Assembly (NCBI GenBank): GCA_045837725.1
Contig: JBEWZL010000044.1
Coordinates: forward strand, 1 to 64,000
Reading direction: 5' to 3'
DNA length: 64,000 nucleotides
Source: Vermamoeba vermiformis
Taxonomy: Eukaryota
Positions 1 through 50,125 of the stretch are shown piece by piece; within the stretch, counting starts at the first letter, position 1, and the number at the start of each line of letters is the position of its first letter. Both the position numbers and the translations under genes were made by a program. The notes under the pieces were generated by a model, which was not told where the DNA came from, did no database searches, and worked only from the letters and a program-made list of their open reading frames with translations.

Positions 1-615
1 GCTGGTGGTCGAAGCATTTCCTTGCATTCTAACGAACATCATGGATGTGGTGTTGAACATCCACAACTCGCCTCCATAATCGTAACTAGTGACCCACATA
101 TTATCATTCTTATCAACAGTGATGCTACCATAGTTGATTCCACCAGGGTGGTTCGTTTCAGCAGGTACTCGAAGGTCGCCAGGGTTGCGTGGATCTGTTC
201 TGGCAGTTTCGTTGCTTCCCCAAACATAACGATACTGATCTGTTTTAGGATTGTAGTTCCATACGTTGAATAAATCATTATCTCCATCGCGAAGCGAAGC
301 TCCAGACATTATCCAAAGAATGCCTTTCGAATCCATTGCTGTTAACGGGTTTGCTCCACGAGAACCAGCGCCAATGTCGATAGTGGCCCAAACGCCTTTC
401 TCGGCAGAGTAGCTCTCGTTTCGAAACAAACGCCGCTATAAAACTGTATTGGCGGGTATAATATTTTTGGCCAATTGTTTGTAAATTTACTCACCAATAC
501 CGGTTTCATTAACCGTGGTTGGAGAAATCCAGATGGGTTCAAACGAGGCAGCCGTAGCGGTTCTGTAAAGTCCGCTCACAAACAAGCAAAGAGCGACTGT
601 AAGGTAGAGTCGCAT
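1..615 (-). CDS. Secreted beta-propeller (kelch/galactose-oxidase-like) repeat protein, 3'-partial
   Basis: ATG at 615 starts a signal peptide (MRLYLTVALCLFVSGLYRTATAA). After an intron an open frame runs off the window edge: ...AMDSKGILWIMSG...VWNYNPKTDQYRYVWGS...PAETNHPGGINYGSITVDKNDNMWV..ELWMFNTTS, which resembles propeller blades. Confidence 0.55.
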
Positions 616-1319
616 GGTGTTGTCTTGAAGTTGAAATAAATAATCGCCAACAAAGGCCGTTGCACGTTTTAAACGGTAAAATACTATTTTTGGCGAATTT
701 AACCAAACGGTCTTGAATCTCACCCGAGATTGTTTGCAGTTAACGTTTTAATATTGCTTGCTCGCAGTAACACTTCTATTTCCTCTTTGAGTTAGCAAAC
801 CGTTGTTAGCGAAGCTTGGATGAGATCAGTACTTTCCTTTTTGAATCTATTCTTGGCTATCAAAAATGAGCATGTCGTTTCTACGAATGAAAAATTAGAT
901 CTGTGGTTTTGGCAGGCGACAGATCTGTTTGATCGGATCCCGAATCCAATCGGGTGCGACGCTGTCTTTTAATCTCTACTCTCAGACGAGTAATGATGGA
1001 TTTAGGAATCTCATAATAATTTAAGAATTATGATGATGACATTAAATAGGGCAAAGTGAAACAAATGACCAACTTTTTTAGTTCGCCTGACCAAAATGAT
1101 TCACAAACAACAGATCAACCAACCGGTGCATACTATTAATGTTAATGACCCTACTGAGGGATTCATTGATATAGTTAAATTCGCTTTAGGTCATTTAGGA
1201 ATTTGTGCGGGTGATTTTGCGAGAATTGTGACGCTGTCAAAATTTCAACCAACCATGCGAACATTCAAAAATCAAAAAGAATAATATTAATATACATACA
1301 CCAGCAGTCATTAAATAAC

Positions 1320-3587: not shown

Positions 3588-4490
3588 TTAACGAAGGCAC
3601 ATATCCTCGTCATTTCCGCACCATCGCTTGAAGATATCTTTTTGAAGCAATACGCTTGCCGTAGGACGCACTACATATCTAGTTATAAAGCAATAGCGAA
3701 TAAGAGCAAACAAACGACGTACACTTTCGTGGACCGAACCAGCCGTCAGTGAGGTCTGGTTTGAGACCAGAGATTTTTCTTCGCGCGTTAGATGAGAATT
3801 TGCGCCGGTTCAAAATATTCGCGCGTATTTGTAGGGCTGTCGGGCTAGACAAATTGTTGAGTCAATGGCTGTTACGGATGCGACTAAAACCTACGCTCCT
3901 ATGTCTGAATGCAAGCCAGAGAGCGACAATAAAGCCCTATATATTGAGTTATGCCAATGGCTTCGCGTGGATCTGTTTGATATCGCAATCTTGGCAAATT
4001 TTCGCGTAATTTTCGTAAAGAGGTATTTCTGCGGAAGAATTAATATATTAATGCTTCATTAACAACAAATAAAAAGATATGTCTTGCCTTGCAGAAGGAC
4101 TGCGGTAAGTAATACAGATTGTGGCTGATCGCGGTCAAAATGCCTTCGTCTTTCAAATCGCCTTCGACAAATTTTACTCCTTCTTCGTTAATTTCATCTT
4201 CTGTGATATAATTAGGGCCAGGCTTTTCGTCATTTTGGTCAAGCTGTGGCAGACTTCAACATCCGCTCTTTCCGCCAAATCTGGTTTGATTTGCAAAGTA
4301 TTAGCAGATAAAATTAGGTATTACCTACCTAATGTCTGCAAGGCGATACTTGTTGTTCGGTTGCTTGGGAATAGCTATTTGTTTTAAATAATCGCCTGGT
4401 AGAATAGCATTCACGTATATACTGCCTTGAAATATATCCTATCGATATATAATAATATTTTCTATAATTACCTCTTACGTACTGTTCCAT
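3588..4490 (-). pseudogene. Internally deleted, frameshifted paralog of the Crinkler-like REase-kinase gene at 33757-36764
   Basis: Hand translation gives ILPGDYLKQIAIPKQPNNKY, EINEEGVKFVEGDLKDEGILTAISHNLYYLPQ, WHNSIYRALLSLSGLHSDIG, ALQIRANILNRRKFSS..GLKPDLTDGW and then RPTASVLLQKDIFK..*. These match the other gene's exons in the same order, with frameshifts near 4245 and 4005. Confidence 0.8.
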
Positions 4491-4574
4491 TGTTGCATTT
4501 TGAAAAATAAAAAGCGCGCAATTACAAATTTTGTTCAAAATTGTTTACATAATTGACGATTGACAACAAAGAAT

Positions 4575-7103
4575 ATGCTTCCTCTTAATAAAAGGCTTGG
4601 TATTCTTGGTGGTGGTCAATTAGGCCGCATGATGAGTGTGGCTGCGCACAGATTGGGTCTCAAAGTATTCGTTTTGGATCCCACGCCTGATTGCCCGTGC
4701 CATGGCTGCGTAGATGAACACATAGTTGGTGACTTCAAGAATGCCCAAGATATTATCAAATTTTGCGATCATGTTAAGTAAGTCCGGATCTGATCCAATT
4801 TTAAAAAATTACAACTAAATTGTAATGATTAACAATGCATTAAATATCGTATAATTATGAATGCATATCACAATTATACTATTAATAAAATTAAACTATA
4901 AGTTATTGAAAGTTTCAGAACTGAAAAACTTTTTGATTCACAGATGCGACGTGCTTACTGCTGAAATTGAGCACATTAATGTAGAAGCATTAGAGACTGT
5001 ACTTAAAGAACGACCTAACATTATTATCGAACCACATCCGTCGACTTTTGCTACGATCCAAAACAAATATCGCCAAAAGCTTCATTTAGACAAGCACAAC
5101 ATTAAACTCGGACCTTTTATGGATATTGATACGACTACTAAAGAAACAACCATTCAATCTATTCATGGTAAGCAGATCCGCATCCGGTAAACCTGATCCG
5201 AATCTCGATCCGCTTTTCAACCAGTTTCTAACCTTATTTCAACTTACGCTATTATATTATAGATGCTGCAAAGGAGTTTGGCTATCCTTTAGTATTAAAA
5301 GCAAAGGCTCTGGCGTACGACGGGCGAGGCAATTACACACTCGAATCTGCAGCTGACATTGAAGAGGCTTTGAGCAAGATTGGCGCTAAGAATTTGTATG
5401 TCGAAAAGTGGGTACGTATTAAGAAAGACTATTTTAGATTCGAAAGTGAGATCTCTATGTACGAATCCGGATGCAAACACATCGAAAAATTTGAGGAAAA
5501 TATTATCGTGAACGCATTAAATGGGCTTAAAAGTTATTCTTCTTATTTTCTTATAATGCAATCTGTAAGTAACAATCTTTTTCATGTCCTAGGTACCATT
5601 CGTACAAGAACTCGCCGTGATGGTCGCCAAGAGCACGAGCGGTGAAATTTCATCGTATCCAGTGGTCAGTACGGTACACAAGGAGCATATTTTAGCGAGC
5701 TTGATTGCACCTGCGGACAATGTACCGACGAAGACTTTGAAAGAAGCAAAAGCACTCGCTGAACGAGCTGTTGCTACCTTTGAAGGTACTAATAATATAG
5801 TTAAGTTACATCGATTTATATTAATATTGTTTTATTAGGTGGCAGTATTTTTGGCGTTGAAATGTTTTATTGCGCGGATGGATCTCTTTTCATAAACGAA
5901 ATTGCGCCAAGACCTCATAACTCAGGTATGGCCCTTATTAATATTAATATCATATTGGTGTATTTATAATGTTATTAGGTCACTACACTATTGAGGCATG
6001 CAATACTAGCCAATTCGAACAGCATGTACGCGCTGTTTTTGGAATGCCGTTGGGAGATCCGAACATGATCGTGAACGCATCAATTATGCTCAATGTACTA
6101 GGCACTGATAATCGTAAGCACTGAAATAATTGCACTTCGGCGACGAAAATACTAATTTGACTACTTTTTTTTCAGCTTCGGATGTAACTTCATGGTTAAA
6201 CAAATCACTCGGAATTAAAGGTGCATCAATCCACTGGTATGCGCTATATTATTCTATATTATATACAACGATATTGATGTTCTTCAAGGTACGGCAAGGC
6301 TGAGCTGAAACCAAAACGAAAATTAGGACACATTACCTTAGTTGGAGAGTCAGTGGCCGTGTTAAAATCACGTGCTGATGCTATTATGGGAGCTCTAGAT
6401 AATACTAATAGCCATAATGTGCAAGAAAAGAATCCGCTCGTCGGAATAATTATGGGATCAGATTCGGATCTGCCAAAGATGAAAGCTGCTGCTGAAATTC
6501 TCGAAGAATTTGGTGTACCTTTTGAAGTTACTATTGTTAGTGCCCATAGGTACGGATTATAGTTTAGTTCGGTTCCGTGTAGCTTGTTGTAACGGCTGAA
6601 ATTTCAGAACGCCGGATCGCATGTTCAAGTACGCTAAAGAAGCTCACCAACGTGGATTGAAGGTCATTATCGCAGGTGCCGGTGGTGCTGCACATCTTCC
6701 TGGCATGGTCGCTTCTCTTACTGCTCTGCCGGTCATAGGTACAAATTCGCTTTCAACTTCTTCGAAACTTTTCGCTTAGTGAGAATGAAATCCATTCTTA
6801 TGGCTTGATTTGATAATGATAAGGATTATTTACGTTTGTTTTGTAGGTGTTCCGGTCCGGATCGAGCCGTTAGATGGTTCAGACTCGTTGCTTTCAATCG
6901 TTCAAATGCCTAAAGGCATTCCAGTAGCAACAGTCGCGATCAACAATAGCACGAATGCAGGTCTATTGGCCGCGAGAATTGTTGGTACATTTGATCGCGC
7001 GGTGTTTGAAAAAATGCAGCAGTATCAACAAGGATTGAACGACATGGTCGAACAGAAGGTTGAAAAGTTAGAAAAAGTTGGCTGGAAGACTTATACACCG
7101 TAG
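4575..7103 (+). CDS. ADE2: Phosphoribosylaminoimidazole carboxylase, PurK-PurE fusion (fungal/plant ADE2 type), multi-exon
   Basis: PurK ATP-grasp motifs [18 protein letters not shown] and [14 protein letters not shown]. PurE motifs [33 protein letters not shown] and [26 protein letters not shown]. Confidence 0.97.
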
Positions 7104-37716: not shown

Positions 37717-39804
37717 ATGAAACAAAAACTAAACTCGATCCTGCTGATCGCTTTGCTAGGCCTTGTTCTGTGCGGCTCCTTCGTGACCTCTTCGATATGG
37801 TCTATGGAAAAATGCACTGGTCGCCTACAAGTACTAGTACCTGAGATAGTAAGTCGTTTTTCTTTCATCCCGAAGTTTTTGTACTGATCGAGATCCGATC
37901 TTCAGGACTTACAGTGCGCGGAGCTTGAGGTACCTAAGAGTCTGCAAACCGAAAACTACGGCAACACTACTGTATTTGCATATCGAGTGCTTTCTAGAGA
38001 TCAGCCAAAGGCCCAGTTGTGGATAGTCAGCGGTGAACCAAATCTGGTACGTTAAAAATTTTCCTTCATTTATTATTAAGAATTGAGATATTAGTTATTG
38101 CAGTAAATCATTTACGTTAAAAACGTTAGAAATTTTTGGATCTGATCGGGATTGTGGTCTAATTTTAATTTATTCAGGCCACGGATGTCGTCGAAACTTT
38201 TTCCGCAATAAGCATGGAGTTTGATATGTACGTCGTCCATACTATTGGTACTGGGCTATCCTCTCCTGTATATTGTCCCAACACTTTCAACAACATGAAT
38301 ACTCAGATCTACGAAGATTGGGCCACTTGTTTTCAAGAAGTGATGCAATATCAACAAGACGCTAATGTCGATTTAACGCAGCTAGGCGCCCGTCATATGG
38401 CTAACACGTTGAAGCTCTTCATCGAAAACTCGAAAGAAAGATCCGATCGTGTCTTCATGATGGGTCTCTCACGTCTGGGCACCTACATTACCAACACTTA
38501 CATGACCTATTATGCCGATACTCTTAAGGGCGTCATCCTCGACGGAACTGTTGCTGGCGGCTTCTCAAATTACCTTTCTTCATTTGATTTGGAGCGTGAA
38601 AGAGTCATCTTGGACTACGTTGCCGGATGTGCTCAAGATTCGTTTTGCCTTGGTTATCTTGGCACAGACCCCGTCAAGTTCACTCGTGATCTGTTCGATT
38701 CATTATATTCGGGCCATTGCCAAGAAGTTGTTCAAACTTTTGGAACGTTGGAAGATCTGTCACGTGTCATGTCGTACGTGCTCTTCCCGTACCCCGAGAC
38801 CCGCGCTGTCGTCACTGCAATGATCCATCGTCTCAACCGTTGTGATGAAGGCGACGTTACCGTTCTTAAAGCAATTGCACATATGACTTTGCTGAAATTA
38901 CCAACAATCACGAAGATGAACTTGACGGCTACTTTAACCGATTCAAACCCGTTCATTCGACAACACATGGAACTCTCTGAAATGGCTCGTACTACCATGA
39001 AACCTGAAGAAATGAAGGCCAAGATCTCTCAATCAGTATTCAGAGTTTATAGTCACGATATGATGGTCTCACGATTGATCAACGAATTGCCATGGATGTT
39101 GGCCACTCCGGGTACGTGTCATGAAATATTCCGATCGATTGATACTAATTATTATATTATAGATCCCTTCTGGGGCGAAGTACCAGCGGCAGATAACCTC
39201 CCTGTGTTGATGGTCTCGGGCAAATATGACGCCGAAACACCTGTCTACATCGCTAATGATGTCGCAAACAGATTGAAAAATGTGAAGCATATTGTTGTTC
39301 CAAGTAAGTATAGCGCATTTTGTAATATTGTTAGTGATATTTATTAACGTTATCATAGACGGTGGTCATTTGAATATTCCTCGCGACCCAACGTGTGGTG
39401 GATCTTTGGTTCGCAAGTTCATCGAATATGGCTCATTTGTCGGCACTGAAAGCTCTGAACAATGTTATAACGAATACTATAAACCTATTTATAAGGCACC
39501 CAACTTTGAAAGTAAGTCAATCAACGAACGCAAAATTGCGGATCAGATCTGACAAAAATTCGTTTTAGGTGATCTGAGAGCGCATTTGGTCAATATGTTG
39601 CACATATCAGGCAATGATCCCTCATTGGCCAATTTTTCGCTCTATGGTGAAATCCCGTCTTCTACTGTCGGTCTTATCGTTGGTCTCATCGTTCTCGGTA
39701 TTGTTGTCATTGGAGGTGCCGTGACATTGATCGTCTTAATTAAGAAAAAGGTCATTACTTTCAAGCGACCTTTTAAGAAGATGGAAGATGAAATGAGCGC
39801 TTAA
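37717..39804 (+). CDS. Alpha/beta hydrolase (TAP-like/peptidase S33-related) with signal peptide and C-terminal TM anchor
   Basis: Signal peptide, LQCAELEVP, GLSRLGT nucleophile-like elbow, VILDG, VLMVSGKYDAETP (Asp) and GGH (His), followed by a C-terminal hydrophobic helix and KKK. Confidence 0.8.
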
Positions 39805-40034
39805 ATGATAACCAACTCCCGTGTGAATACTTTGTAGATAAAAACTTTTTTATCAATCGTTACTGATACTAAGTCTTATAGTCGTATATTGTGATGCCTT
39901 GGTTAAATATGCCTGAATTGAAATGAACTTCTTTTTTTGCTTCTCTAGAACTGACGTTCACAACAATTATTAAATCAACAACAAAATCTTGTCGATGTAA
40001 ACATAAGCAAGCCACGCAACGATACAACTACACT

Positions 40035-41239
40035 ATGGAGCGTCGAAGGCCAAAGCGACCGTTGAATTGGAGCACGTACAACCTCAAAGTGCTAAAACAG
40101 GTAATTAAAATAAATAGGAAATTCTTTAAAATCTTGTAATCGTAATATCATAATATTAACTGTATTCGATTGATTATTTTGGACTAAAATATTAATTAAT
40201 TAAATTTAATTTTTGAAACAAAGGTGCACGGAGCTAATAACCTTGGTTTATCGACGAAAGCGATGACAGTGGTCAATGATATGCTATGGGATTTATATCA
40301 TCGAATTATGAAGGAATCAGAAAACCTTATGGTGCTCTCGAAGAAATCCACTATCACGGTTCTCAGCATCCAGACAGCAGTACGATTAATTATGCCTGGA
40401 GAGCTTGCTAAACATGCCGTAAGTGAAGGTGAGCGTTATATATTAAATCCCTCGACACTTTTGAATTTAGAACTTCACATCCGATTCGTTGTTCGTGAAA
40501 CTGATTTCTATTTTTAGGCGCAAAATCCGTAGCCAAATGCGGATGCGCCTGTGTTGCTGTTTACGATGGTCATAACCATCATGCAGCTCCTGCGACCAAG
40601 CCGACTAAACCTAAAAGAAGGGAACCTCGCGGCAATAAAAGCTCTCGCGTTGGATTAGCTTTTCCGGTCGGAAGAGTACAAAGAAAAATGCGCAATGATA
40701 CTAAGTACCGTGTGAATGATAAAGGTAAATAATATGACCACATATGAAGGAACGAACTGGGTCACTAAAAGAAGCTATTTTTAGCCGGAATTTATCTCAC
40801 TGCGGTCATCGAGTACATCTCCGCGGAGATTTTGGAGTTGGCTGGGAATGCAGCACGTGATAACGGGTAAACTTTACTCTTAGACAACAAATTAACTCGG
40901 ATGACACGTGTCACTATTCCACTACGATCAAAATGTTGCCGTATTTTGATTTTCGTATTTTATTGCCCTAATAGTTAATATTTTACTTTTAGCAAAAAAC
41001 GAATCATTCCGAGGCATGTAATGTTGGCCATTAGAAATGACGAAGAATTGAACAAATTATTTCGCGATTCTATCATCGCATTTGGTGGCGTAAGTAAAAA
41101 CAACGGCTTAGTACTCGTTTATTTTTATTAACTCTGAATTTAAAAGGTTATGCCGGTCATTACGGTTACCATCATGCGTCCGAAAGTTACAATAGCTCAT
41201 AATAACAATAATAATAACAACGAACAAACTCCTGCATGA
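40035..41239 (+). CDS. Histone H2B-H2A doublet (fusion) protein, 6 exons, 249 aa
   Basis: Exons 40035-40100, 40224-40428, 40518-40724, 40785-40866, 40993-41089 and 41147-41239 total 750 nt with no internal stop. H2B fold: [44 protein letters not shown]2A fold: [70 protein letters not shown]. Confidence 0.92.
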
Positions 41240-41322
41240 AAACTGTTGTAAAGTCGACATATATTTTTAAGCCTATAATAGTGTAATCCATTTGTATTGA
41301 AGTAACGTTATCACACGTGATT

Positions 41323-43345
41323 TTATTTGTCTTTTTTCTCCTTAGCAATCAATTCTTTCGAAATAGTGTGCACTGCTTCAACGTAGGCACCGATCTGCTC
41401 GGGTTTGTGTTCAGGCATGCAACCGTGACCCAAATTAGCTATCAATGACTTGGTGCCGAATCCTTCTAACATCTCACGCGTTAATTTAAACACTGTTTCT
41501 TTGTCAGCAAACAAAGCGGTCGGATCCATGTTGCCTTGAAGACACTTATTAGGACCAACTACTGTGCGTGATTCATGAGGATCCATAGTCCAATCCAAAC
41601 CTAAGTGCCACCGTTAATACTTTTATACGATAATTGATGTGAAATGAGAATAAGAAATAGTTTGACACGTGTCAACATGTCACGACACGCACCACTTTTC
41701 ATCAATAATTTAAATCAGTGTTATTAATTAATAACGGCATCGTTATCAAATTATTACTATAGGTCCCTAAGGATAGCTATAAATAATAATTGAACAATTG
41801 TCGAGTCGATGCACGAGTGTGTAACGTCATTAAAAAGTACTACTTTGACACGCAACTTTTCACAAACATCGCTGTATTATGGACTTACCAATAACGTCAA
41901 ATACTCCCGCTGCCTTCAAATCTTCTAACGCGTAATGAGCGCCCTTAGGGAAGACAATGATTGGTGTGTCAGGGTGTCGCTGTTTAATCGTGCGAGCGAT
42001 TTGTGTAATGTATCTATAAAGGAAGTGATTAGTATGCTACTATTGCACTATACAACTAATCGAGTTAATAGGCATATTATAAAAACTCTTCTATTCTTAT
42101 TTTGCTTGGCATAAAAAAATTGGCGGTATTAGTTGTAAAAATTCATTTAATCCTTCTAACCGCATAAAATCGCCTCCTTATATTAACGTAATTACGCGTA
42201 TTAATTTTGATAGTCATAATTATGCCAAAAAAAATTTTGAAAGGCAAAGTAAAGTAAGTACTTACGGCAACGAAAATTCTTTAAATTGTTTCGGACCCAA
42301 TTCACCAGCCCACGAATCGAAAATTTGAACAGCTTGAGCACCAGCTTCGATTTGAGCGCACAAATATTCTTCGATGACTTTCGAGAGCGAGGCCATTAAG
42401 TCGTGCGATTGTTTGTTGTGGCACCACAGCCAACTCTTCGCCTTTGAGAATGTCTTGCTGCCTTTGCCTTCGACCATATAAGCCATCAATGTCCATGGGG
42501 CACCGGAGAAGCCTTGTATAATATGTTAGTATCATATAGTCCTCTTAAATATTCCAGCTAATTGTTTGCACACGTGACAAACTTGACTGGATCCGCGAAT
42601 TGAATTTTTGACAAAATCAATCAGATTTTTGTATTATCTACTGAATACGGTGAATATTTGTATATTATTAATGATTTTAACAGATTACTGTAATATTATT
42701 TTTCTGATTAGAATTGGTTGGTTTGGGATGAGTTACCGATCAAAGGCACGCGTCCGTTCAATTTGTGTCTAGTTAACGTGATCGCTTGCATTACGTATCC
42801 TAATTTGTCCTTAACATCGACTTTATGATCGAGTCTATATTCAATAAAATCCGTCAGTAATCATGAAAAGCGGATCCAAAAAACAATTATTCCGGATGCC
42901 TAACAGATTTTTGTAGAATATTTCGTGCGTTAATTATTATGATATTTTAGGATAATTATCGGAGTATTAGTAATGCAAATAAATGCCAAATAATGTACCT
43001 GGAATAAATTTCCTCCGGACTTTTCAATGGATTTGGGAATACAGGGCCTTCACCAGCACGCATATCTACTTCTAAGCCCATAGCTTGAGGCACCACTAAA
43101 ATATCGCTGAAAATGATTGCAGCATCCAACGGGAATCGATCAATGGGTTGGATGGTAATTTCGCAGGCTAATTCGGGCGTGCGGCATACAGTAAAGAAGT
43201 CGTGCTTAGCTCTGACTTCTCTAAATTCAGGCAAGTAGCGACCAGCTTGTCGCATCAGCCAAACTGGAACGTGATCGACATCTTCGCCCTTGATCGCGCG
43301 AAGGAATGTGTCGTTCTTGAGCTCAGGAAAGTTAGTGGCCTCCAT
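41323..43345 (-). CDS. hemE: Uroporphyrinogen decarboxylase
   Basis: [55 protein letters not shown] and IANLGHG. Confidence 0.97.
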
Positions 43346-44089
43346 TATAGTTATTATGACAATAAGAACAGTATTTTTTTTGTTCGGACTTTTTCCAAGC
43401 GAAGTCACGCGCCCATAATCTTTGCCTCTCCCATCCGACATAAAAGGAAAAAACGAGCTCGATCGCGCCTTTACCGCCCCTATCGGTGGAGTATATCACT
43501 CTTAATGATGTTACGACAGAGAGTGCGATGTGCTGACACCAATAACTAAACGAGTACACAGCGTCCTGGGCAACTGGGATGCACCTCGGATTTTTTGGAC
43601 GACCGGCAACCTCTTTGTTGACCGGTCTCCTCTCAATAATTAAAGAAATGAATTAAGAGTTGGGATTTTGGTTTGGGATCAGGTGGATTTGGGTGCCATA
43701 GTCAATTTTACTTTCAATTTAGCTTAATTATTCCTTCTGAACGTTTGATAAATGTAATTTCCATTGTAAAAATCATAAATAATTCTTACCCATCCGATGA
43801 AATGCGATTCTTGTGCGTTGGAACATCAATTTTACGCCGAACGAACGGAGGCGCGGAATGGATTCCGGATGGACCTCACGGAGCTGCACTTTCAAAGCGG
43901 TATATGCACGTAACGCTTAGATTAGATATTTATAGTTGACAAGTTTGACGGGGTGCGTCTATCGCGATGAGCAGTCTCCCAAATCAATCGTCACGTGCCT
44001 CGTCCAAGTCAACAGACAGTTTTTTCGTTTTTTAAAAATCAATTCTAACTCCGTAGTAACAACACACGTTGGTCATTTATTATATAACA
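43346..44089. promoter_or_regulatory. Probable bidirectional promoter region between divergent hemE and ALAS
   Basis: About 745 bp separate the two divergent ATGs (43345 and 44090). The function is inferred from gene geometry only. Confidence 0.5.
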
Positions 44090-46600
44090 ATGGCCTTCAA
44101 CGTTGCTGCCTTTTTGGCAAAATGCCCGTTCTCCAAGAAGATGCCATCTCACATCACTCCGTTGTTGAGCGTGATGGCCTCATCTTGCCCTGTCGTTGGT
44201 GCTAAAGAAAAGAGTGGCAATGCAATCACCGCATCTGATTTGGCTACTTTCCATTCTTCATGCCCCTTTGCTGGCGTGTTGAAGCGAAACTATACATCTG
44301 CTCCTGCGCGCGATGAGCATCAAGATCAGCGCCACCACGACCACCCTCGATCATTTCCTATGCAGCACCATGGCGAGCACCATCAAAAACACCGTAATAT
44401 GGTAGAAAGTAGGTGTTTTAAACATTCCCAATGAATTTACTACCTCGATCCCAAGTGAAATTAGTGACTTTTATTTCAAATTTGCCGGACAAAAAAGATT
44501 GATATTACATGACACAATAATATAATAATTATTTGGCATTTTCTCGGGGTAAACTCCGAGCACTCGTAACAGTATCGCGAGATGTAGCCCAGTTGTGTAA
44601 CGATAGAAAATTAACCTTGATATTTATTCTAATATCCTGATAATATTTGCTAATATTGTTTTCTATTCAGGCGCTGCTAAGCATGTTTCTGACCCCAAAT
44701 CCAAAATGACCAACTACAATAAATTTTTTGCTGATAGCTTGGATCAGCTGAAGAAAGAGGGACGATACCGTGAATTTAAGACGATGAGTCGCAAGTAAGT
44801 GATAATCATTGCATAGAAACCCCTTCTAGAACCTTGTCGTTGAAGGTTACTAGCGGATTTATAACGAATTTTACGTTCATGAAACAGTTTGATGAAATAA
44901 CCGTACTTAATCTCATTTACCAACAGGTGCGGACGTTTCCCCTACGCAGACCACTCAGACTTGAATGGTAAGTTCACCAAGAAGATTTTTTCGCAATTAC
45001 TTTTCTTCCGTGATCCGGTAAAGCGGCGCCGGAATGAAATTACGAAAGTGAACACTATCTAACTGTGTCTATCAATCTATTAGGCGAGCAAATCACTGTA
45101 TGGTGCAGCAATGATTATCTCGGTATGGGACAAAATCCCGTAGTTCTCAAAGCAGTCCACCAAGCGATCGACGAAGCAGGTGCTGGATCTGGTGGCACGA
45201 GAAACATCTCAGGCACGAACAAGTAAGTAATAGTGCGATATTCATTTGCAATATAGCTTTATAATAATTACGCTGATCTTGGCAAATCTTTATTGAATTT
45301 TGAATTTACTGTGTAAAGCAACCACTACGCAGAGACAAGATTGAAATTCTAAAAAATTGAAGAAAATTAACGAATAGCAATGAAAGCGAATATCTAAGGC
45401 AATCATATCAATATCATGCCTAACGAAGCGATTGTGCTTACGTGACATGAAGATCTAATCGACGAATTAATTTAGGTACCACGTACGCTTGGAGAATGAA
45501 CTTTCAGACCTGCACCACAAAGAAGGCGCGCTCTTATTCGCCAACTGCTATTCAGCTAATGTTTCGACTATCACTACTCTCGTCAAGCTCATTCCTGGCT
45601 TGACGATCTTCTCGGATGCGAAAAACCATGCAAGCTTGATTGAAGGTATTCGCAATAGCAAGGCTCCTAAATTCGTGTTCAAGCACAACAGCGTCGAACA
45701 TTTGGAAGAATTGTTGAAGACTGTTGACATTAAGACCCCGAAGCTGATCATCTTTGAATCCGTGTACTCGATGGACGGCACTATTGCTCCTATTGAAGAA
45801 ATTGCTGACTTGGCTGACAAGTACAATGCTATGACTTTTATTGATGAAGTCCACGCTGTTGGCATGTATGGTCCTCGTGGCGCTGGTGTTGCTGAACGTG
45901 ATGGCCAGATGCACCGTATGGACATTATCTCTGGAACTCTTGCTAAGGCTTTTGGAGTCTATGGTGGTTATATTGCTGCTAATGCCATGATCACCGATGC
46001 GATCAGATCGCACAGCTCTGGTTTCATTTTCACCTCGAGCTTGCCCCCATCCGTGACTGCTGGTGCTGCTGCTAGCGTCAACTACCTTAAGACTCACAGT
46101 GCTGAGCGTGAGGCCCAACAAGCTAATGCTAAGTAAGTTATTTGAACGATCATAATATGCTAAATAAGATTTAAATTGTTTCGGTTTCACGCGGATCTGC
46201 AGTTGCTAACGGTCACTTTTTTAGGCGCTTGAAGGTCTTGTTGAAGGAGGCTGGTATTCCATTCATTGATGCCCCGAGCCACATAGTCCCTGTGATGGTC
46301 GGCAATGCTGTCACTTGCAAGAAGATGAGCGACCGTTTGCTCCAAAAGCACAAGATCTACGTCCAACCGATCAACTACCCAACTGTTCCTGTGGGTACTG
46401 AACGATTCCGCTTGACTCCTGGTCCTTTGCACACTGAAGCCATGATGAAGAGCTTGATCAATGCCTTGTTGGACGTCTACCAAGAGTTCAACGTTCCTTT
46501 GGTCAAATCCGCTCCGATCTCGCCTGTGCACGAGCAGATCGTGGTCAATGTCGTTCACACTGCTGCTCAAAAGCAAGTGCCTGTCGAGACTGTGGCCTAA
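44090..46600 (+). CDS. hemA: 5-aminolevulinate synthase, mitochondrial (Shemin pathway)
   Basis: N-terminal CP heme-regulatory motifs (KCPF, SCPV, SCPF), [51 protein letters not shown] lysine in SGTLAKAFG, and [18 protein letters not shown]. Confidence 0.97.
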
Positions 46601-47788: not shown

Positions 47789-50125
47789 GGGTCCGTTACG
47801 ATTTAGGAAAATTTTAGGAGTCGGAATGGAAATCATCTCCTACAATTTGTCTTCCGAATATGTCACGAAACTAATTTTGGTCAATTTTCTTAATCGTTTC
47901 TATTTATTTATAAAATCATAATTATCTAATCAAGCCATGGTTGTTCTCGAGCGTCAATTATTCGGTTGAGATGGTACGCCTTGTCTTGTTCATAGTTGTC
48001 ATCACTATAAGCTTTGAAACTAACGTTCGGAACGAGCCACCCAATTAATGAGAGCTTTCGAACTCGACCTGGCGTTGAGCCTGTTGAGTATTTGACCCAC
48101 ACTGTTGTTGATGTTGAGTTTGGCTTTAATGCTTCACTTATAACTGCCCAAAACTTTGGCTTCTCTGAACGCGTTGCTATCTCTCGATTGTGAGAGCTAA
48201 CTTTACAATAGCTCGCTGATTCAATGCAACAATACTTGCAATATTTCAGTGTACAACTTGCATTGAGGTTGCGCTTCTTGCACTTCAAACAAAGATTCAC
48301 GTTGCCGTTGTTTGTTTCGATTTCAACTACTTCTACATTTCGGTTGTGGCTTAATGCTGTCGTGTTGTCAATTGTAACTGACTGTAAGGTTCTATTCGTT
48401 GTATTGACTTCTTTCAATCTCTGCTCTAATAGCATGGGCACAGACACAATATTGAAATAGTATCGCCATTCACGATGTAGAAAATCAGCAACAACATCCA
48501 AGTCTTGTTGTGGTTTGTATAATGCACTCTTTAAGGCATTGTGCCATGCTTCAAGCAGCTGATTGCCAGAGGGTGCATTCCTTCGACTATGAAGGGCCCA
48601 TGTAGTCGTTTGATGCACCTCAGTCCACTCTCTTCTGAAGTAAGCAGCGTAGTCAGGCATTGTCTGAAGCCACTGAGACTGATACCGCTGCAATTGTGTG
48701 TCAAAGGATGTCTTGTCAGGCAACACCAGCAGTTGATGGAGCTGTTCTACAACAGTGTCGATCGATGGGCAATGGTGTTGACTTAACCAGCGGCGATTTG
48801 CTTGAAGGAAGTGAAATGAATCCCCAAGCACTGATGCAGTCTCGCTGAAGTTCTCTCGGCAGGCGTTCTGCAAGGCCAGCTCATAGTCAGTCACAATGTA
48901 AACAGGCTTCCATTGTCGCCCAGTAGCTTCGTTCATGTGCTTGAAGAAGAATGAATAAGACTCCGTGCTTGCCTGGTTGGTGATGTAGAATGCAACTGGT
49001 ACACCAATGCCATGGTGGTTGATCATGAGCGTAACCAAGGTCATGTCAACACCATTGACTTGCACGACCTTGTGTGTGCCATCGATGAACACTACTCTGC
49101 CTTCGTTGATAAGATATTTGAGGCCATCGTTATCACAAAGAATGATGCCGTAGAAGGGAGCGTACTGAACAATGACACGAAGGAATTGAGTGCCAAGCTC
49201 TCCGTGTAGCAGAACAACATTTGCAGCAGCTTCAGATGAGATGTAATGAGAGTGTTGGAGGCAGTATTTCATTTGCCGTATTGCCCCTTTGGTTGCAATT
49301 GTCCGCGATGACTGATCCGATCCGCTCTCAGCAACTAGCTTTCGATGGACTTGTGAAGGCTTTGCACCATGAGTTAGCATCGTTTTAATCAAGTGGGCCT
49401 TCTCGGGCAACAATTTGGGCGTTGATAATGGCAGGTGATTGTGCGATCCACCATAAAACTCTCGCTTATGTGAGGCTGTGGGGACTGTTAGTTCAATGAC
49501 TTTCATGCGTGCAGGACATCCTGACCTATTATTTCCACAGCGATAATATTGAGTAATCTCGGCATTACGTTGGTGCCTGCCATCTTTTTGCCAAGGCCAA
49601 TCCGTAAAATTTTCTAAAGTCGCTAAAAAAATGCAACAATCAGTTAATTATTTACAAAATTATTATTCCTATTATTTGGCTACGATCCTAGGAATTATTG
49701 AGTCGTTGCCAATGAATTTTAATTACTGATCAAAACAAAATTACGAAAATATTATTAAAAATTGTCGAACTTACTCTCAATTGATACAATAATGCCCTAT
49801 TGGTCCGTTTTTTCTTGTAGGCTGTCTGTGTCGGGGTTGATCTCGGCCAAAGAAGGACTAGGAAAGGATTGGTCGATCTGCATCTCGATGGCTTCGTCAA
49901 AATTATTGTTTAAGCCTTGAGTCAAGTTATCTAAATATTGCTTTGTGTTGTTCATTGTTTGAAATGAAAAATAATGCCTTGCCAACGACAAACGGATTTT
50001 ATGATTTCGAATCATTTTAACTCCGAATTTAAATATCTGAAAACCAATTTAAATCCTAACGAAAAACAGTTCGGAATTCCTACTCCTATTCCTATTTCCG
50101 ACTTTTCCGAGATCGTAACGAACCC
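47789..50125 (-). mobile_element. Mutator-like (MULE) DNA transposon, 2337 bp, with an 8-bp TSD GCAGTGTA
   Basis: TSD at 47781-47788 and 50126-50133. Imperfect TIRs: GGGTCCGTTACGATTTAGGAAAA and reverse complement GGGTTCGTTACGATCTCGGAAAA. Removing the element restores the BTB reading frame. Confidence 0.93.
47926..49955 (-). CDS. MULE transposase (WRKY/FLYWCH-like Zn finger, DDE core, Cys-rich finger, WYL-like C-terminus) with an in-frame TAG in predicted exon 1
   Basis: YYRC..GCPARM..HNH, FIDGTH, IVTDYE, DSFH and LEAWHNALK. Exon 1 (ATG 49955) splices in phase but has a TAG at 49797-49799. Confidence 0.88.

Follow-up and report, generated by a model that had tools for sequence, protein, structure and literature searches.

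A 64,000-nucleotide stretch of the Vermamoeba vermiformis genome (GenBank assembly GCA_045837725.1, contig JBEWZL010000044.1, positions 1 to 64,000 of the forward strand; here called the window) carries, at 40035-41239 on the plus strand, a gene that encodes an H2B histone and an H2A histone as one polypeptide. Until now, doublet histones have been known in viruses and as laboratory constructs; this gene is a cellular, intron-bearing case. Because the joint lies inside one exon, a full-length ortholog (P0001) is found in another eukaryote and spliced RNA contigs from close relatives cover the gene, the fusion is supported as real: it is an H2B-H2A gene of a cellular genome and not two genes merged by annotation. 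As to what the gene is for, we think it probable, with a good deal of room for doubt, that the single H2B-H2A chain made by this transcribed and spliced cellular gene enters nucleosomes as a minor, replication-independent variant.

A single exon joins H2B to H2A

Frames were read and candidate exons joined by script, which gave a gene model of six exons and five introns, all of the GT..AG type. The coding sequence of 750 nt encodes 249 amino acids and ends in TGA, and the introns are 123, 89, 60, 126 and 57 nt long. In the resulting protein, the H2B fold takes up residues 1-97, a linker of 38 residues follows (98-135), and the H2A fold (136-226) leads into a divergent tail with seven Asn. The two histones meet in exon 3 (40518-40724), which falls within a single stop-to-stop frame (40505-40732). 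This one frame runs from the end of the H2B C-helix through the whole linker to the start of H2A without a stop, and the first Met of the exon comes only after the H2A N-helix, leaving no Met before the H2A start. As the joint lies within one exon, no splice prediction is needed to create the fusion. A first-pass annotation, made from the sequence alone, had placed the same three elements in this exon, free of stops and of any Met ahead of H2A, and our reading of the frame agrees with it throughout.

The remaining exons complete the two folds in order. Exon 1 (40035-40100), delimited by its frame and a GT donor, contributes the start codon, a short basic N-end of 12 residues and the start of H2B helix 1. 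Exon 2 (40224-40428) holds the H2B fold with helices 1-3 and the start of the C-helix, and matches Pfam PF00125 (E 2e-06 on 40224-40427). Besides the end of the H2B C-helix and the linker, exon 3 encodes the H2A N-helix and helix 1; on its own it is too short for Pfam detection, and its PDB matches to H2A N-ends are weak (E about 0.005). The H2A helix 2 block lies in exon 4 (40785-40866). Exon 5 (40993-41089) encodes the RIIPRH...RNDEELNKL block, with loop 2, helix 3 and the C-helix of H2A. Exon 6 (41147-41239) supplies a divergent H2A docking/C-terminal segment, the seven Asn (41201-41221) and the TGA (41237-41239). Set against the doublet consensus, the H2A N-helix motif, helix 2 block and DEEL block are all visible in the window protein.

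Spliced RNA contigs cover the gene

To positions 39400-41700 of the window we aligned public runs. Among the 15 listed, 12 contain part of this stretch and none contains half of its words, and one is RNA on record. Four were aligned: X1 and X10 as contigs, and X13 and X15 as raw-read RNA. The X1 contigs, at 95-99% likeness to the window, have no coverage in the introns, and their joints are exact to the base at introns 1, 2, 4 and 5 and within one base at intron 3. For intron 1 (40101-40223; 123 nt, phase 0), a contig over 39985-40098 is joined to 40222, skipping 123 nt with the cut at +2. For intron 2 (40429-40517; 89 nt, phase 1), the joint is 40426>40516, which skips 89 nt (cut +2) at a depth of 7.09. 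Intron 3 (40725-40784; 60 nt, phase 1) is represented by the X1 joint 40721>40783, and an X10 contig passes from 40724 into the first 16 letters of exon 4. The joints 40865>40992 (126 nt skipped, cut +1) and 41089>41147 (57 nt skipped) correspond to intron 4 (40867-40992; 126 nt, phase 2) and intron 5 (41090-41146; 57 nt, phase 0). Within the exons, X1 contigs lie over 40518-40672 and 40992-41089 and, past the stop codon, reach 41269; exon 4 is covered by contigs of both X1 and X10. The X10 contig, which is RNA-Seq on record, covers 40574-40724 and so begins in the linker, crosses the joint of exons 3 and 4 and ends at 40866. Transcription and splicing are seen in at least two runs from different studies, X1 and X10.

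Compared codon by codon with the window, X1 has 7 synonymous and 9 non-synonymous differences, most of them in H2B loop 2 and the tail, and X10 has 2 and 0. Contig depth in X1, a poor measure of expression, is about 5-10 on the histone gene compared with 39-72 on an exon of the adjacent UROD gene, or about a seventh to a tenth. The X1 contigs on 39985-41269 also fall into two grades of likeness, the one near 99% (a single difference over 155 nt) and the other near 95% (9 over 188 nt), which suggests two related genotypes, gene copies or organisms in the sample.

The fusion is conserved in a second eukaryote

With exon 3 as query against 5.8 billion protein clusters, a single matching protein emerged from 13 candidates. 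This protein, P0001, is a 251-residue 'complete' open reading frame (ORF) of a Trinity transcript in EukProt, from another eukaryote. It aligns end to end with the spliced window protein at 70% identity (179/255 columns) in the identical order of H2B, linker and H2A, and differs in length at the exon junctions only by two extra residues at the joint of exons 1 and 2. Identity is 79% in the H2B fold (78/99 columns), 78% in the H2A fold, 40% in the linker (16/40 columns) and 56% in the tail. Pfam PF00125 finds two histone stretches in P0001 (E 2.6e-18), the second at its residues 128-205. The earlier statement that the fusion is no artefact of the gene model is thus borne out by the spliced contigs of X1 and X10 and by this ortholog, and for the ortholog survey that the first-pass annotation had proposed, the search of protein clusters gave this one protein of the same build.

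Wider searches indicate that the family is small. When P0001 was run by HMMER against 1.84 billion representatives, 10,048 matches came back at E up to 0.001, in which the score drops from 552 bits for P0001 itself to 199 bits for the next match, a gap that makes the family a single cluster at 50% identity. A word-based search among proteins of similar length returned only P0001 and two unnamed doublets of 215 residues at 38% identity. No close relative was found in IMG/VR and no family member among the JGI metagenome contigs, both searched with P0001, and a degenerate DNA motif for the H2A start matched nine contigs, none of them carrying a family member. Alignment A3, run against contigs of prokaryote genomes, returned 72 loci, which are canonical histone genes on contaminant contigs together with two intronless doublets (L042 and L096).

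A family confined to one such cluster, with an unproductive splice form besides (see below), might be expected of a decaying or accidental fusion that has no function. We regard this as very improbable because of the conservation: the frame is intact in two organisms, and the folds are conserved twice as well as the linker. Its splicing and transcription in runs of different studies also speak against an accident. In addition, the window protein retains 23/23 invariant and 25/27 near-invariant columns of a 13-row doublet alignment that was built without it.

A predicted intramolecular H2A-H2B pair

The AlphaFold2 model of P0001, made from a 25-row alignment, has a predicted local distance difference test score (pLDDT) of 85.4 and a predicted template modelling score of 0.79, and all H2B and H2A helices are present. 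Only 12 residues stand ahead of the first H2B helix, and H2B helices 1-3 and the C-helix follow. The linker is modelled with low confidence (pLDDT 53-65). The two halves are predicted to pack against each other within the chain as an H2A-H2B-like pair, so that the structure prediction called for by the first-pass annotation, carried out here on P0001 as a single chain, came out as a confident intramolecular dimer.

The best Foldseek matches of this model are engineered single-chain H2B-H2A chimeras (target template modelling (TM) score 0.90-0.97, 42-46% identity). In sequence, engineered chains are the best matches in the PDB as well: phmmer places residues 9-226 of P0001, as a single stretch, on one named 'Histone H2B,Histone H2A' (E 6.4e-46). 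According to the titles of PDB entries, such chains crystallise in the H2B-then-H2A order with chaperones and nucleosome factors, indicating that this order suits the fold. The chimeras (PDB 6w4l, 7dlx, 4m6b and 2jss among them) share the fold order of the window protein and demonstrate that tying the C-end of H2B to the N-end of H2A leaves a working dimer that chaperones bind. They are man-made, with canonical or H2A.Z sequences and a short linker or none, whereas the window protein is natural and has a 38-residue linker with CxC...HxH, a truncated H2B N-tail and a divergent H2A C-end.

The same titles show that free single-chain H2B-H2A is bound by many factors, viral proteins included (BKRF4, NAP1, Chz1, Anp32e, YL1 and Sad1). 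The window protein might accordingly be imagined as a soluble mimic of the H2A-H2B dimer that stays off DNA and binds chaperones, acidic-patch readers, viral proteins or metal, as a decoy, buffer or sensor. The divergent docking/C-terminal segment, which in P0001 gives no PF16211 match, the low RNA depth and the confinement of the Cys/His cluster to the linker would all fit such a role. Other double histone folds, for example the Sos domain, act away from nucleosomes, according to the passages available of a review (PMC13088155). However, of the columns facing DNA or the partner that do not vary among doublets, the window protein has lost none (23/23), the basic stretches ahead of both folds are kept, and the GGV.P.I pattern of the H2A C-terminus is still present. 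On this evidence, we consider a soluble mimic unlikely. The histone domains of Sos, ABTB2 and SPT3 are likewise intramolecular pseudodimers with an H2B-like fold followed by an H2A-like one (Sos, PDB 1q9c, target TM 0.82). Sos 1q9c is only 20% identical, and these are signalling or transcription domains without histone motifs, whereas the window protein keeps the motifs.

A Cys/His linker and reduced tails

The linker (40538-40651, residues 98-135) begins with a Cys/His cluster (40538-40582; C98, C100, C102, H109, H111 and H112), followed by a basic stretch that resembles an H2A N-tail; in all it has 3 Cys, 3 His, 4 Lys and 4 Arg. The Cys, which are the only ones in the window protein, lie within residues 98-102 and the His within 109-112, in line with the earlier description of the linker as rich in Cys and His. 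The pattern C100-x-C102-x6-H109-x-H111 is kept in P0001 in the pair alignment, so that a candidate zinc-binding pattern of the CCHH type (CxC-x6-HxH) occurs in 2/2 sequences, in a part where the model is of low confidence. Conservation across these two sequences suggests metal binding or redox chemistry as a lead to follow. A Cys/His linker is present in no other doublet that we aligned.

As the least conserved part of the protein (16/40 columns), predicted to be flexible and bearing a basic run, the linker could also be pictured as a cleavage site. In that case the fusion would be a precursor serving only co-expression, cut for example at the basic KPKRRE to free an H2B-like and an H2A-like histone. 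Yet both orthologs keep the Cys/His positions, which a mere spacer would not need, and in the available passages of Irwin and Richards (PMC11222145) no consistent predicted cleavage sites are reported for viral histone repeats. Such a cut precursor strikes us as highly unlikely.

The N-tail of H2B is reduced to 12 residues before helix 1, with a single Lys, whereas other aligned doublets have up to about 60; the window protein has no long Lys-rich H2B N-tail. The near absence of this tail, claimed from the letters, is also seen in the P0001 model, and the poly-Asn tail noted at the same time corresponds to the run of seven Asn close to the C-end. In the DEEL block and two further blocks, the window protein keeps all acidic residues of the doublet consensus. 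We take these residues to be the nucleosome acidic patch, and with that assumption the claim that the H2A acidic-patch residues are retained is upheld.

A minor nucleosomal variant is the favoured reading

The gene lacks the marks of a replication-dependent histone gene, which would be intronless, carry a 3' stem-loop and lie in a histone cluster. Rfam gave no match in the window, hence no histone 3' stem-loop, and the 64-kb window contains no other histone gene, hence no H4-H3 doublet partner nearby. From the introns, the lone position, the missing stem-loop and the modest RNA depth together, we infer the profile of a replication-independent variant and not of a bulk histone.

In the model that we favour, the single chain would act as a pre-paired H2A-H2B unit and enter nucleosomes as a minor variant. 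The tether would force the divergent halves to pair only with each other, at 1:1, without mixing with canonical partners. The lost H2B tail and the replaced H2A tail would remove the usual sites of modification, and the linker, lying on the face of the particle, would offer a new and putatively metal-binding surface.

Several points weigh against this reading. Entry into nucleosomes is suggested by conserved residues only, and the comparisons were made without the host's own canonical H2A and H2B. P0001 has lost two acidic residues that the window protein keeps. It also has no match to PF16211, the Pfam family of the H2A C-terminus, at E up to 0.01 (a scan of P0001), whereas 7/8 longer doublets with a histone match do have one. 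On the side of the transcripts, the record type of X1 is a tool's guess ('RNA?'), and that X1 is RNA is deduced from its spliced contigs. X13 and X15, raw-read RNA under the same species label, yielded 4 reads and 1 read, respectively, at 90-95% likeness, and no joint is covered by any of them; as these two runs have almost no reads on any gene of the aligned stretch, they are uninformative on expression and no sign of silence. One X1 contig uses an alternative GT donor (40419-40420; 40418|40419), 10 nt upstream of the main donor of exon 2, to join the end of exon 2 to 40518-40672 (joint 40418>40518, 99 nt skipped, GT..AG, depth 3.1). This shifts the frame and would give a 91-residue, H2B-only product with four extra residues into exon 3. 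Another X1 contig (depth 7.09) has no alignment over 40566-40627 in the linker, where both flanks fit and the 62 nt skipped do not have intron ends. As 62 is not a multiple of three, a plain deletion at 40566-40627 would break the frame; the linker of the X1 relative probably differs there.

Each half resembles eukaryotic histones

To place the gene among known histones, we compared its halves with canonical-like histones, with unnamed eukaryote-like doublets and with doublets from IMG/VR. Median identities of the window protein (H2B half/H2A half) are 49%/60%, 47%/52.5% and 34%/44%, respectively, and the ranges to canonical-like halves are 45-54% for H2B (10/10) and 53-65% for H2A. Compared with 120 listed singlets, the H2A half is 46-58% identical to those of fungi, animals, plants and stramenopiles alike and has no close relative among them. 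P0001 shares 17-30% identity with ten named giant-virus doublets, including 24% with the Marseillevirus H2B/H2A fusion. With the Melbournevirus doublet of solved structure, it shares 26%.

Among the best 150 matches to P0001, 123 are H2B-H2A proteins, 9 have the reverse order, 12 are H2A-H2A and 3 are H2B-H2B. Fused H2B-H2A proteins are common in public data, nearly always in this order. Some clearly sit on virus-like DNA, with 32 loci in IMG/VR, and in the ESM Atlas the closest clusters have the size of doublets and are for the most part recorded as Nucleocytoviricota. Across both halves, the window protein shares 40% identity with a doublet on the IMG/VR giant-virus contig L001 and 44% with one on L042. 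Among the unnamed doublets, P0011, P0017, P0020, P0021, P0022, P0038 and others share with it the fold order, an 18-residue H2A stretch described below and 37-46% overall identity. Many of them have a full-length H2B tail, a ubiquitin domain, FG repeats or a C-end like that of H2A.Z, and none has a Cys/His linker.

Several of these relatives have features of their own. L001, from a giant-virus metagenome-assembled genome (MAG), bears a ubiquitin-H4-like fusion (3-545, minus strand) divergent from its H2B-H2A doublet (571-1287, plus strand), which is 54-65% identical to many unnamed doublets. L042, a contig of 35.8 kb, is assigned to a Proteobacteria MAG and probably belongs to a large virus that was misbinned. 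Its 274-residue intronless doublet (3929-4753, plus strand) has a full Lys-rich H2B tail and sits in a dense array of long ORFs that includes a helicase-like one. Unnamed doublets with extra parts comprise P0017, P0018, P0020, P0022, P0024, P0034, P0037, P0040, P0041, P0056 and P0059; the extras are an N-terminal ubiquitin (P0037, Pfam E 1.8e-19), FG-type repeats before or after the folds, and H2A.Z-like C-ends (P0040, P0056 and P0059). Some unnamed doublets end in an acidic residue and Phe or Tyr, C-ends that presumably resemble the H2A.X motif. One further match to the P0001 query, in 14 stretches, was P0101 (2839 residues), in which Pfam finds only CXCXC repeats and a phage clamp-binding repeat and phmmer with the window halves finds no histone fold; it is probably a low-complexity false match.

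Single-half trees and a short H2A stretch suggest a possible link to other doublets

We built trees from each half and from both together, with references that include neither named H2B singlets nor H2A.Z and H2A.X singlets, though some unnamed doublets have H2A.Z-like C-ends. In the quick tree of the H2A half, the target pair falls among unnamed doublets in a 23-row set with a Shimodaira-Hasegawa-like approximate likelihood ratio test (SH-aLRT) support of 95. In that of the H2B half, it lies in a 5-row set (SH-aLRT 93) inside a 33-row set (80), again of unnamed doublets. The quick tree of the concatenated halves (66 rows, 211 columns) unites 9/10 IMG/VR doublets with P0271 in a starred set (SH-aLRT 98) that leaves the target outside. 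In the careful concatenated tree, the target is an unplaced long branch and its grouping with unnamed doublets dissolves. In approximately unbiased (AU) tests, forcing the target together with the IMG/VR doublets cost 4.4 log-likelihood units (p-AU 0.443) and forcing it together with canonical-like pairs cost 19.5 (p-AU 0.283), and neither was rejected. The separate phylogenies of the halves that had been asked for at the outset therefore put both among unnamed doublets, and the concatenated tree leaves the target unplaced.

By pattern match, 18 residues separate the H2A N-helix motif from helix 2 in the window protein (the helix 1/loop 1 stretch). Among singlets (116/120 caught by the pattern), it has 19 residues in 109 and 18 in 1, whereas among the 83 H2B-H2A doublets caught it has 18 residues in 28 and 20 in 12. 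P0001 was not caught by the pattern, and its 18 residues were counted by eye. In this sample of 83 doublets and 116 singlets, the length of the stretch differs mainly among fused forms. Its (S/T)Kx(R/K)(V/I) look in the window protein is similar to that of the doublets with the same length. We take the H2A loop in this stretch to be the contact between two H2A copies in the nucleosome. The shared length indicates either a common descent with some of the doublets or convergence that followed the tying of the chains.

A viral source is possible and doubtful

The first-pass annotation had raised a domesticated viral histone as one explanation. In this case, a fused eukaryote-like H2B-H2A gene from a giant virus or mirusvirus would have been kept by the host, with introns gained later or inherited from an intron-rich nuclear virus. 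The prevailing H2B-then-H2A order, the doublets on virus-like contigs (32 IMG/VR loci, L001 and L042) and the doublet-sized ESM-Atlas neighbours agree with such a source, as do the single-half trees, the 18-residue stretch (28/83 doublets against 1/116 singlets) and the small cost of an IMG/VR clade. In mirusviruses, which are nuclear, introns are abundant and histones count among the core functions, according to the passages available of PMC12768974, so that the introns of the window gene do not settle its origin. An unrelated H2A gene on contig L039 has three introns, each at a distance of 1 to about 7 codons from the introns of the window gene, with no position in common.

Other results go against a viral source. 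P0001 is distant from named viral doublets (17-30%; Melbournevirus 26%) and closer to the engineered chimeras of eukaryotic histones (42-46%), and both halves of the window protein are nearer to canonical-like histones than to IMG/VR doublets. The starred IMG/VR set excludes the target, no close IMG/VR relative was found, the 10 window ORFs scanned hold no viral hallmark, the composition is host-like, and the gene has five introns and housekeeping neighbours. The doublets beside which the single-half trees place the target are themselves unnamed, two of them (P0020 and P0037) have no close IMG/VR relative, and the H2A tree was built without H2A.Z and variant singlets. Taken together, a domesticated viral gene appears to us a possibility worth keeping, with the odds clearly against it.

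Both halves are of the crown-eukaryote type. Either the fusion took place within the lineage of the host, or an older line of H2B-H2A doublets passed it on by inheritance or acquisition; we lean slightly to a cellular origin. That an old eukaryote-like line of H2B-H2A doublets, which also circulates in large DNA viruses, has in this gene a living member in a cell is conceivable at about the same doubtful level as a viral source. Under it, two routes are a possibility: a virus-borne doublet was taken into host chromatin, or the gene is a cellular relative of the stock that supplied the viruses with theirs.

Housekeeping neighbours surround the gene

An upstream gene for a membrane protein ends 230 nt before the histone ATG. 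Downstream and convergent lies UROD (uroporphyrinogen decarboxylase; 41323-43495, minus strand), whose frame ends 83 nt past the histone stop and whose nearest PDB match is the human enzyme, followed by ALAS (5-aminolevulinate synthase; 45471-46600, plus strand), with the Rhodobacter and human enzymes as the nearest PDB matches. An ESM-Atlas search with the ALAS exon returned no informative taxon. These two haem-synthesis genes lie within about 5 kb of each other beside the histone gene. Genes with DHHC, D123 and MULE matches in Pfam are further off. The MULE transposase domain (Pfam E 1.8e-11) lies in an uninterrupted frame of 573 residues (47926-49647, minus strand), which is possibly an intact DNA transposon. 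The GC content is 38% in the gene and 39% in the window, and no tRNA genes were found in the window.

We considered whether the window itself might be a giant-virus or mirusvirus genome and rejected this on its housekeeping neighbours UROD, ALAS, DHHC and D123. Viral hallmark families were absent from the 10 window ORFs scanned (4/10 with a Pfam family), a result that leaves room for a small insertion elsewhere in the window.

Relation to known fused histones

The viral H2B-H2A doublets of Marseilleviridae and other Nucleocytoviricota are likewise one chain, with H2B first, a short linker and reduced tails. The fold of the Melbournevirus doublet (PDB 7n8n chain B) superposes on the P0001 model with a target TM of 0.83. 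Viral doublets form nucleosome-like particles, as the passages available of PMC8357426 and PMC12297534 describe. They are uninterrupted ORFs in viral genomes, in contrast to the window gene with its five spliceosomal introns, housekeeping neighbours and 17-30% identity.

Among cellular proteins, the closest by description are the double folds of Miyake et al. 2026 termed HSIH for the high identity of their sequences to histones, known to us through a review (PMC13088155) and also in the reference list of PMC13520046. In the passages available, these are predicted cellular single-domain proteins of Chordata, Arthropoda, Nematoda and Mollusca, with an H2B-like and then an H2A-like fold, as in the window protein, and at least 60% histone identity. 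The window halves have medians of 49% (H2B) and 60% (H2A) to canonical-like histones, and their joint lies in a single exon and is seen in RNA. A follow-up to Miyake et al. makes no mention of introns or protists in the passages available. Talbert et al. found the animal fusion cases that they checked to be splicing mis-annotations of neighbouring genes (passages of PMC9145170).

Statements on eukaryotes in general are negative in the passages available: Talbert et al. 2022 describe fused core histones as not confirmed in eukaryotes (PMC9145170), Irwin and Richards 2024 describe eukaryotic histone fusions as not observed and build an 'evolutionary ratchet' argument on this absence (PMC11222145), Erives 2017 gives no cellular fusion, and a preprint by Grau-Bove has doublets only in viruses. 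Our literature searches for natural cellular H2B-H2A fusions found none, and the supplement lists of PMC9145170, PMC11222145 and the Grau-Bove preprint may hold cases. The idea of a fused histone variant in Dictyostelium was dropped, as the passages available of four papers mention no fusion.

Implications

The window gene is a counter-example to the stated absence of histone fusions in eukaryotes. An annotation error is no explanation for its joint, which lies in one exon, occurs in spliced RNA and has been conserved in another organism. If the gene does descend from an old doublet line, a present-day cell would be using a fused core histone, against the notion of a ratchet that locked histones apart before the last eukaryotic common ancestor. 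The Cys/His linker, itself conserved, adds a feature open to direct testing. Overall, the gene offers a natural system for the study of a tethered H2B-H2A in cellular chromatin, of the effect of losing both tails, and of histone gene flow between viruses and cells in either direction.

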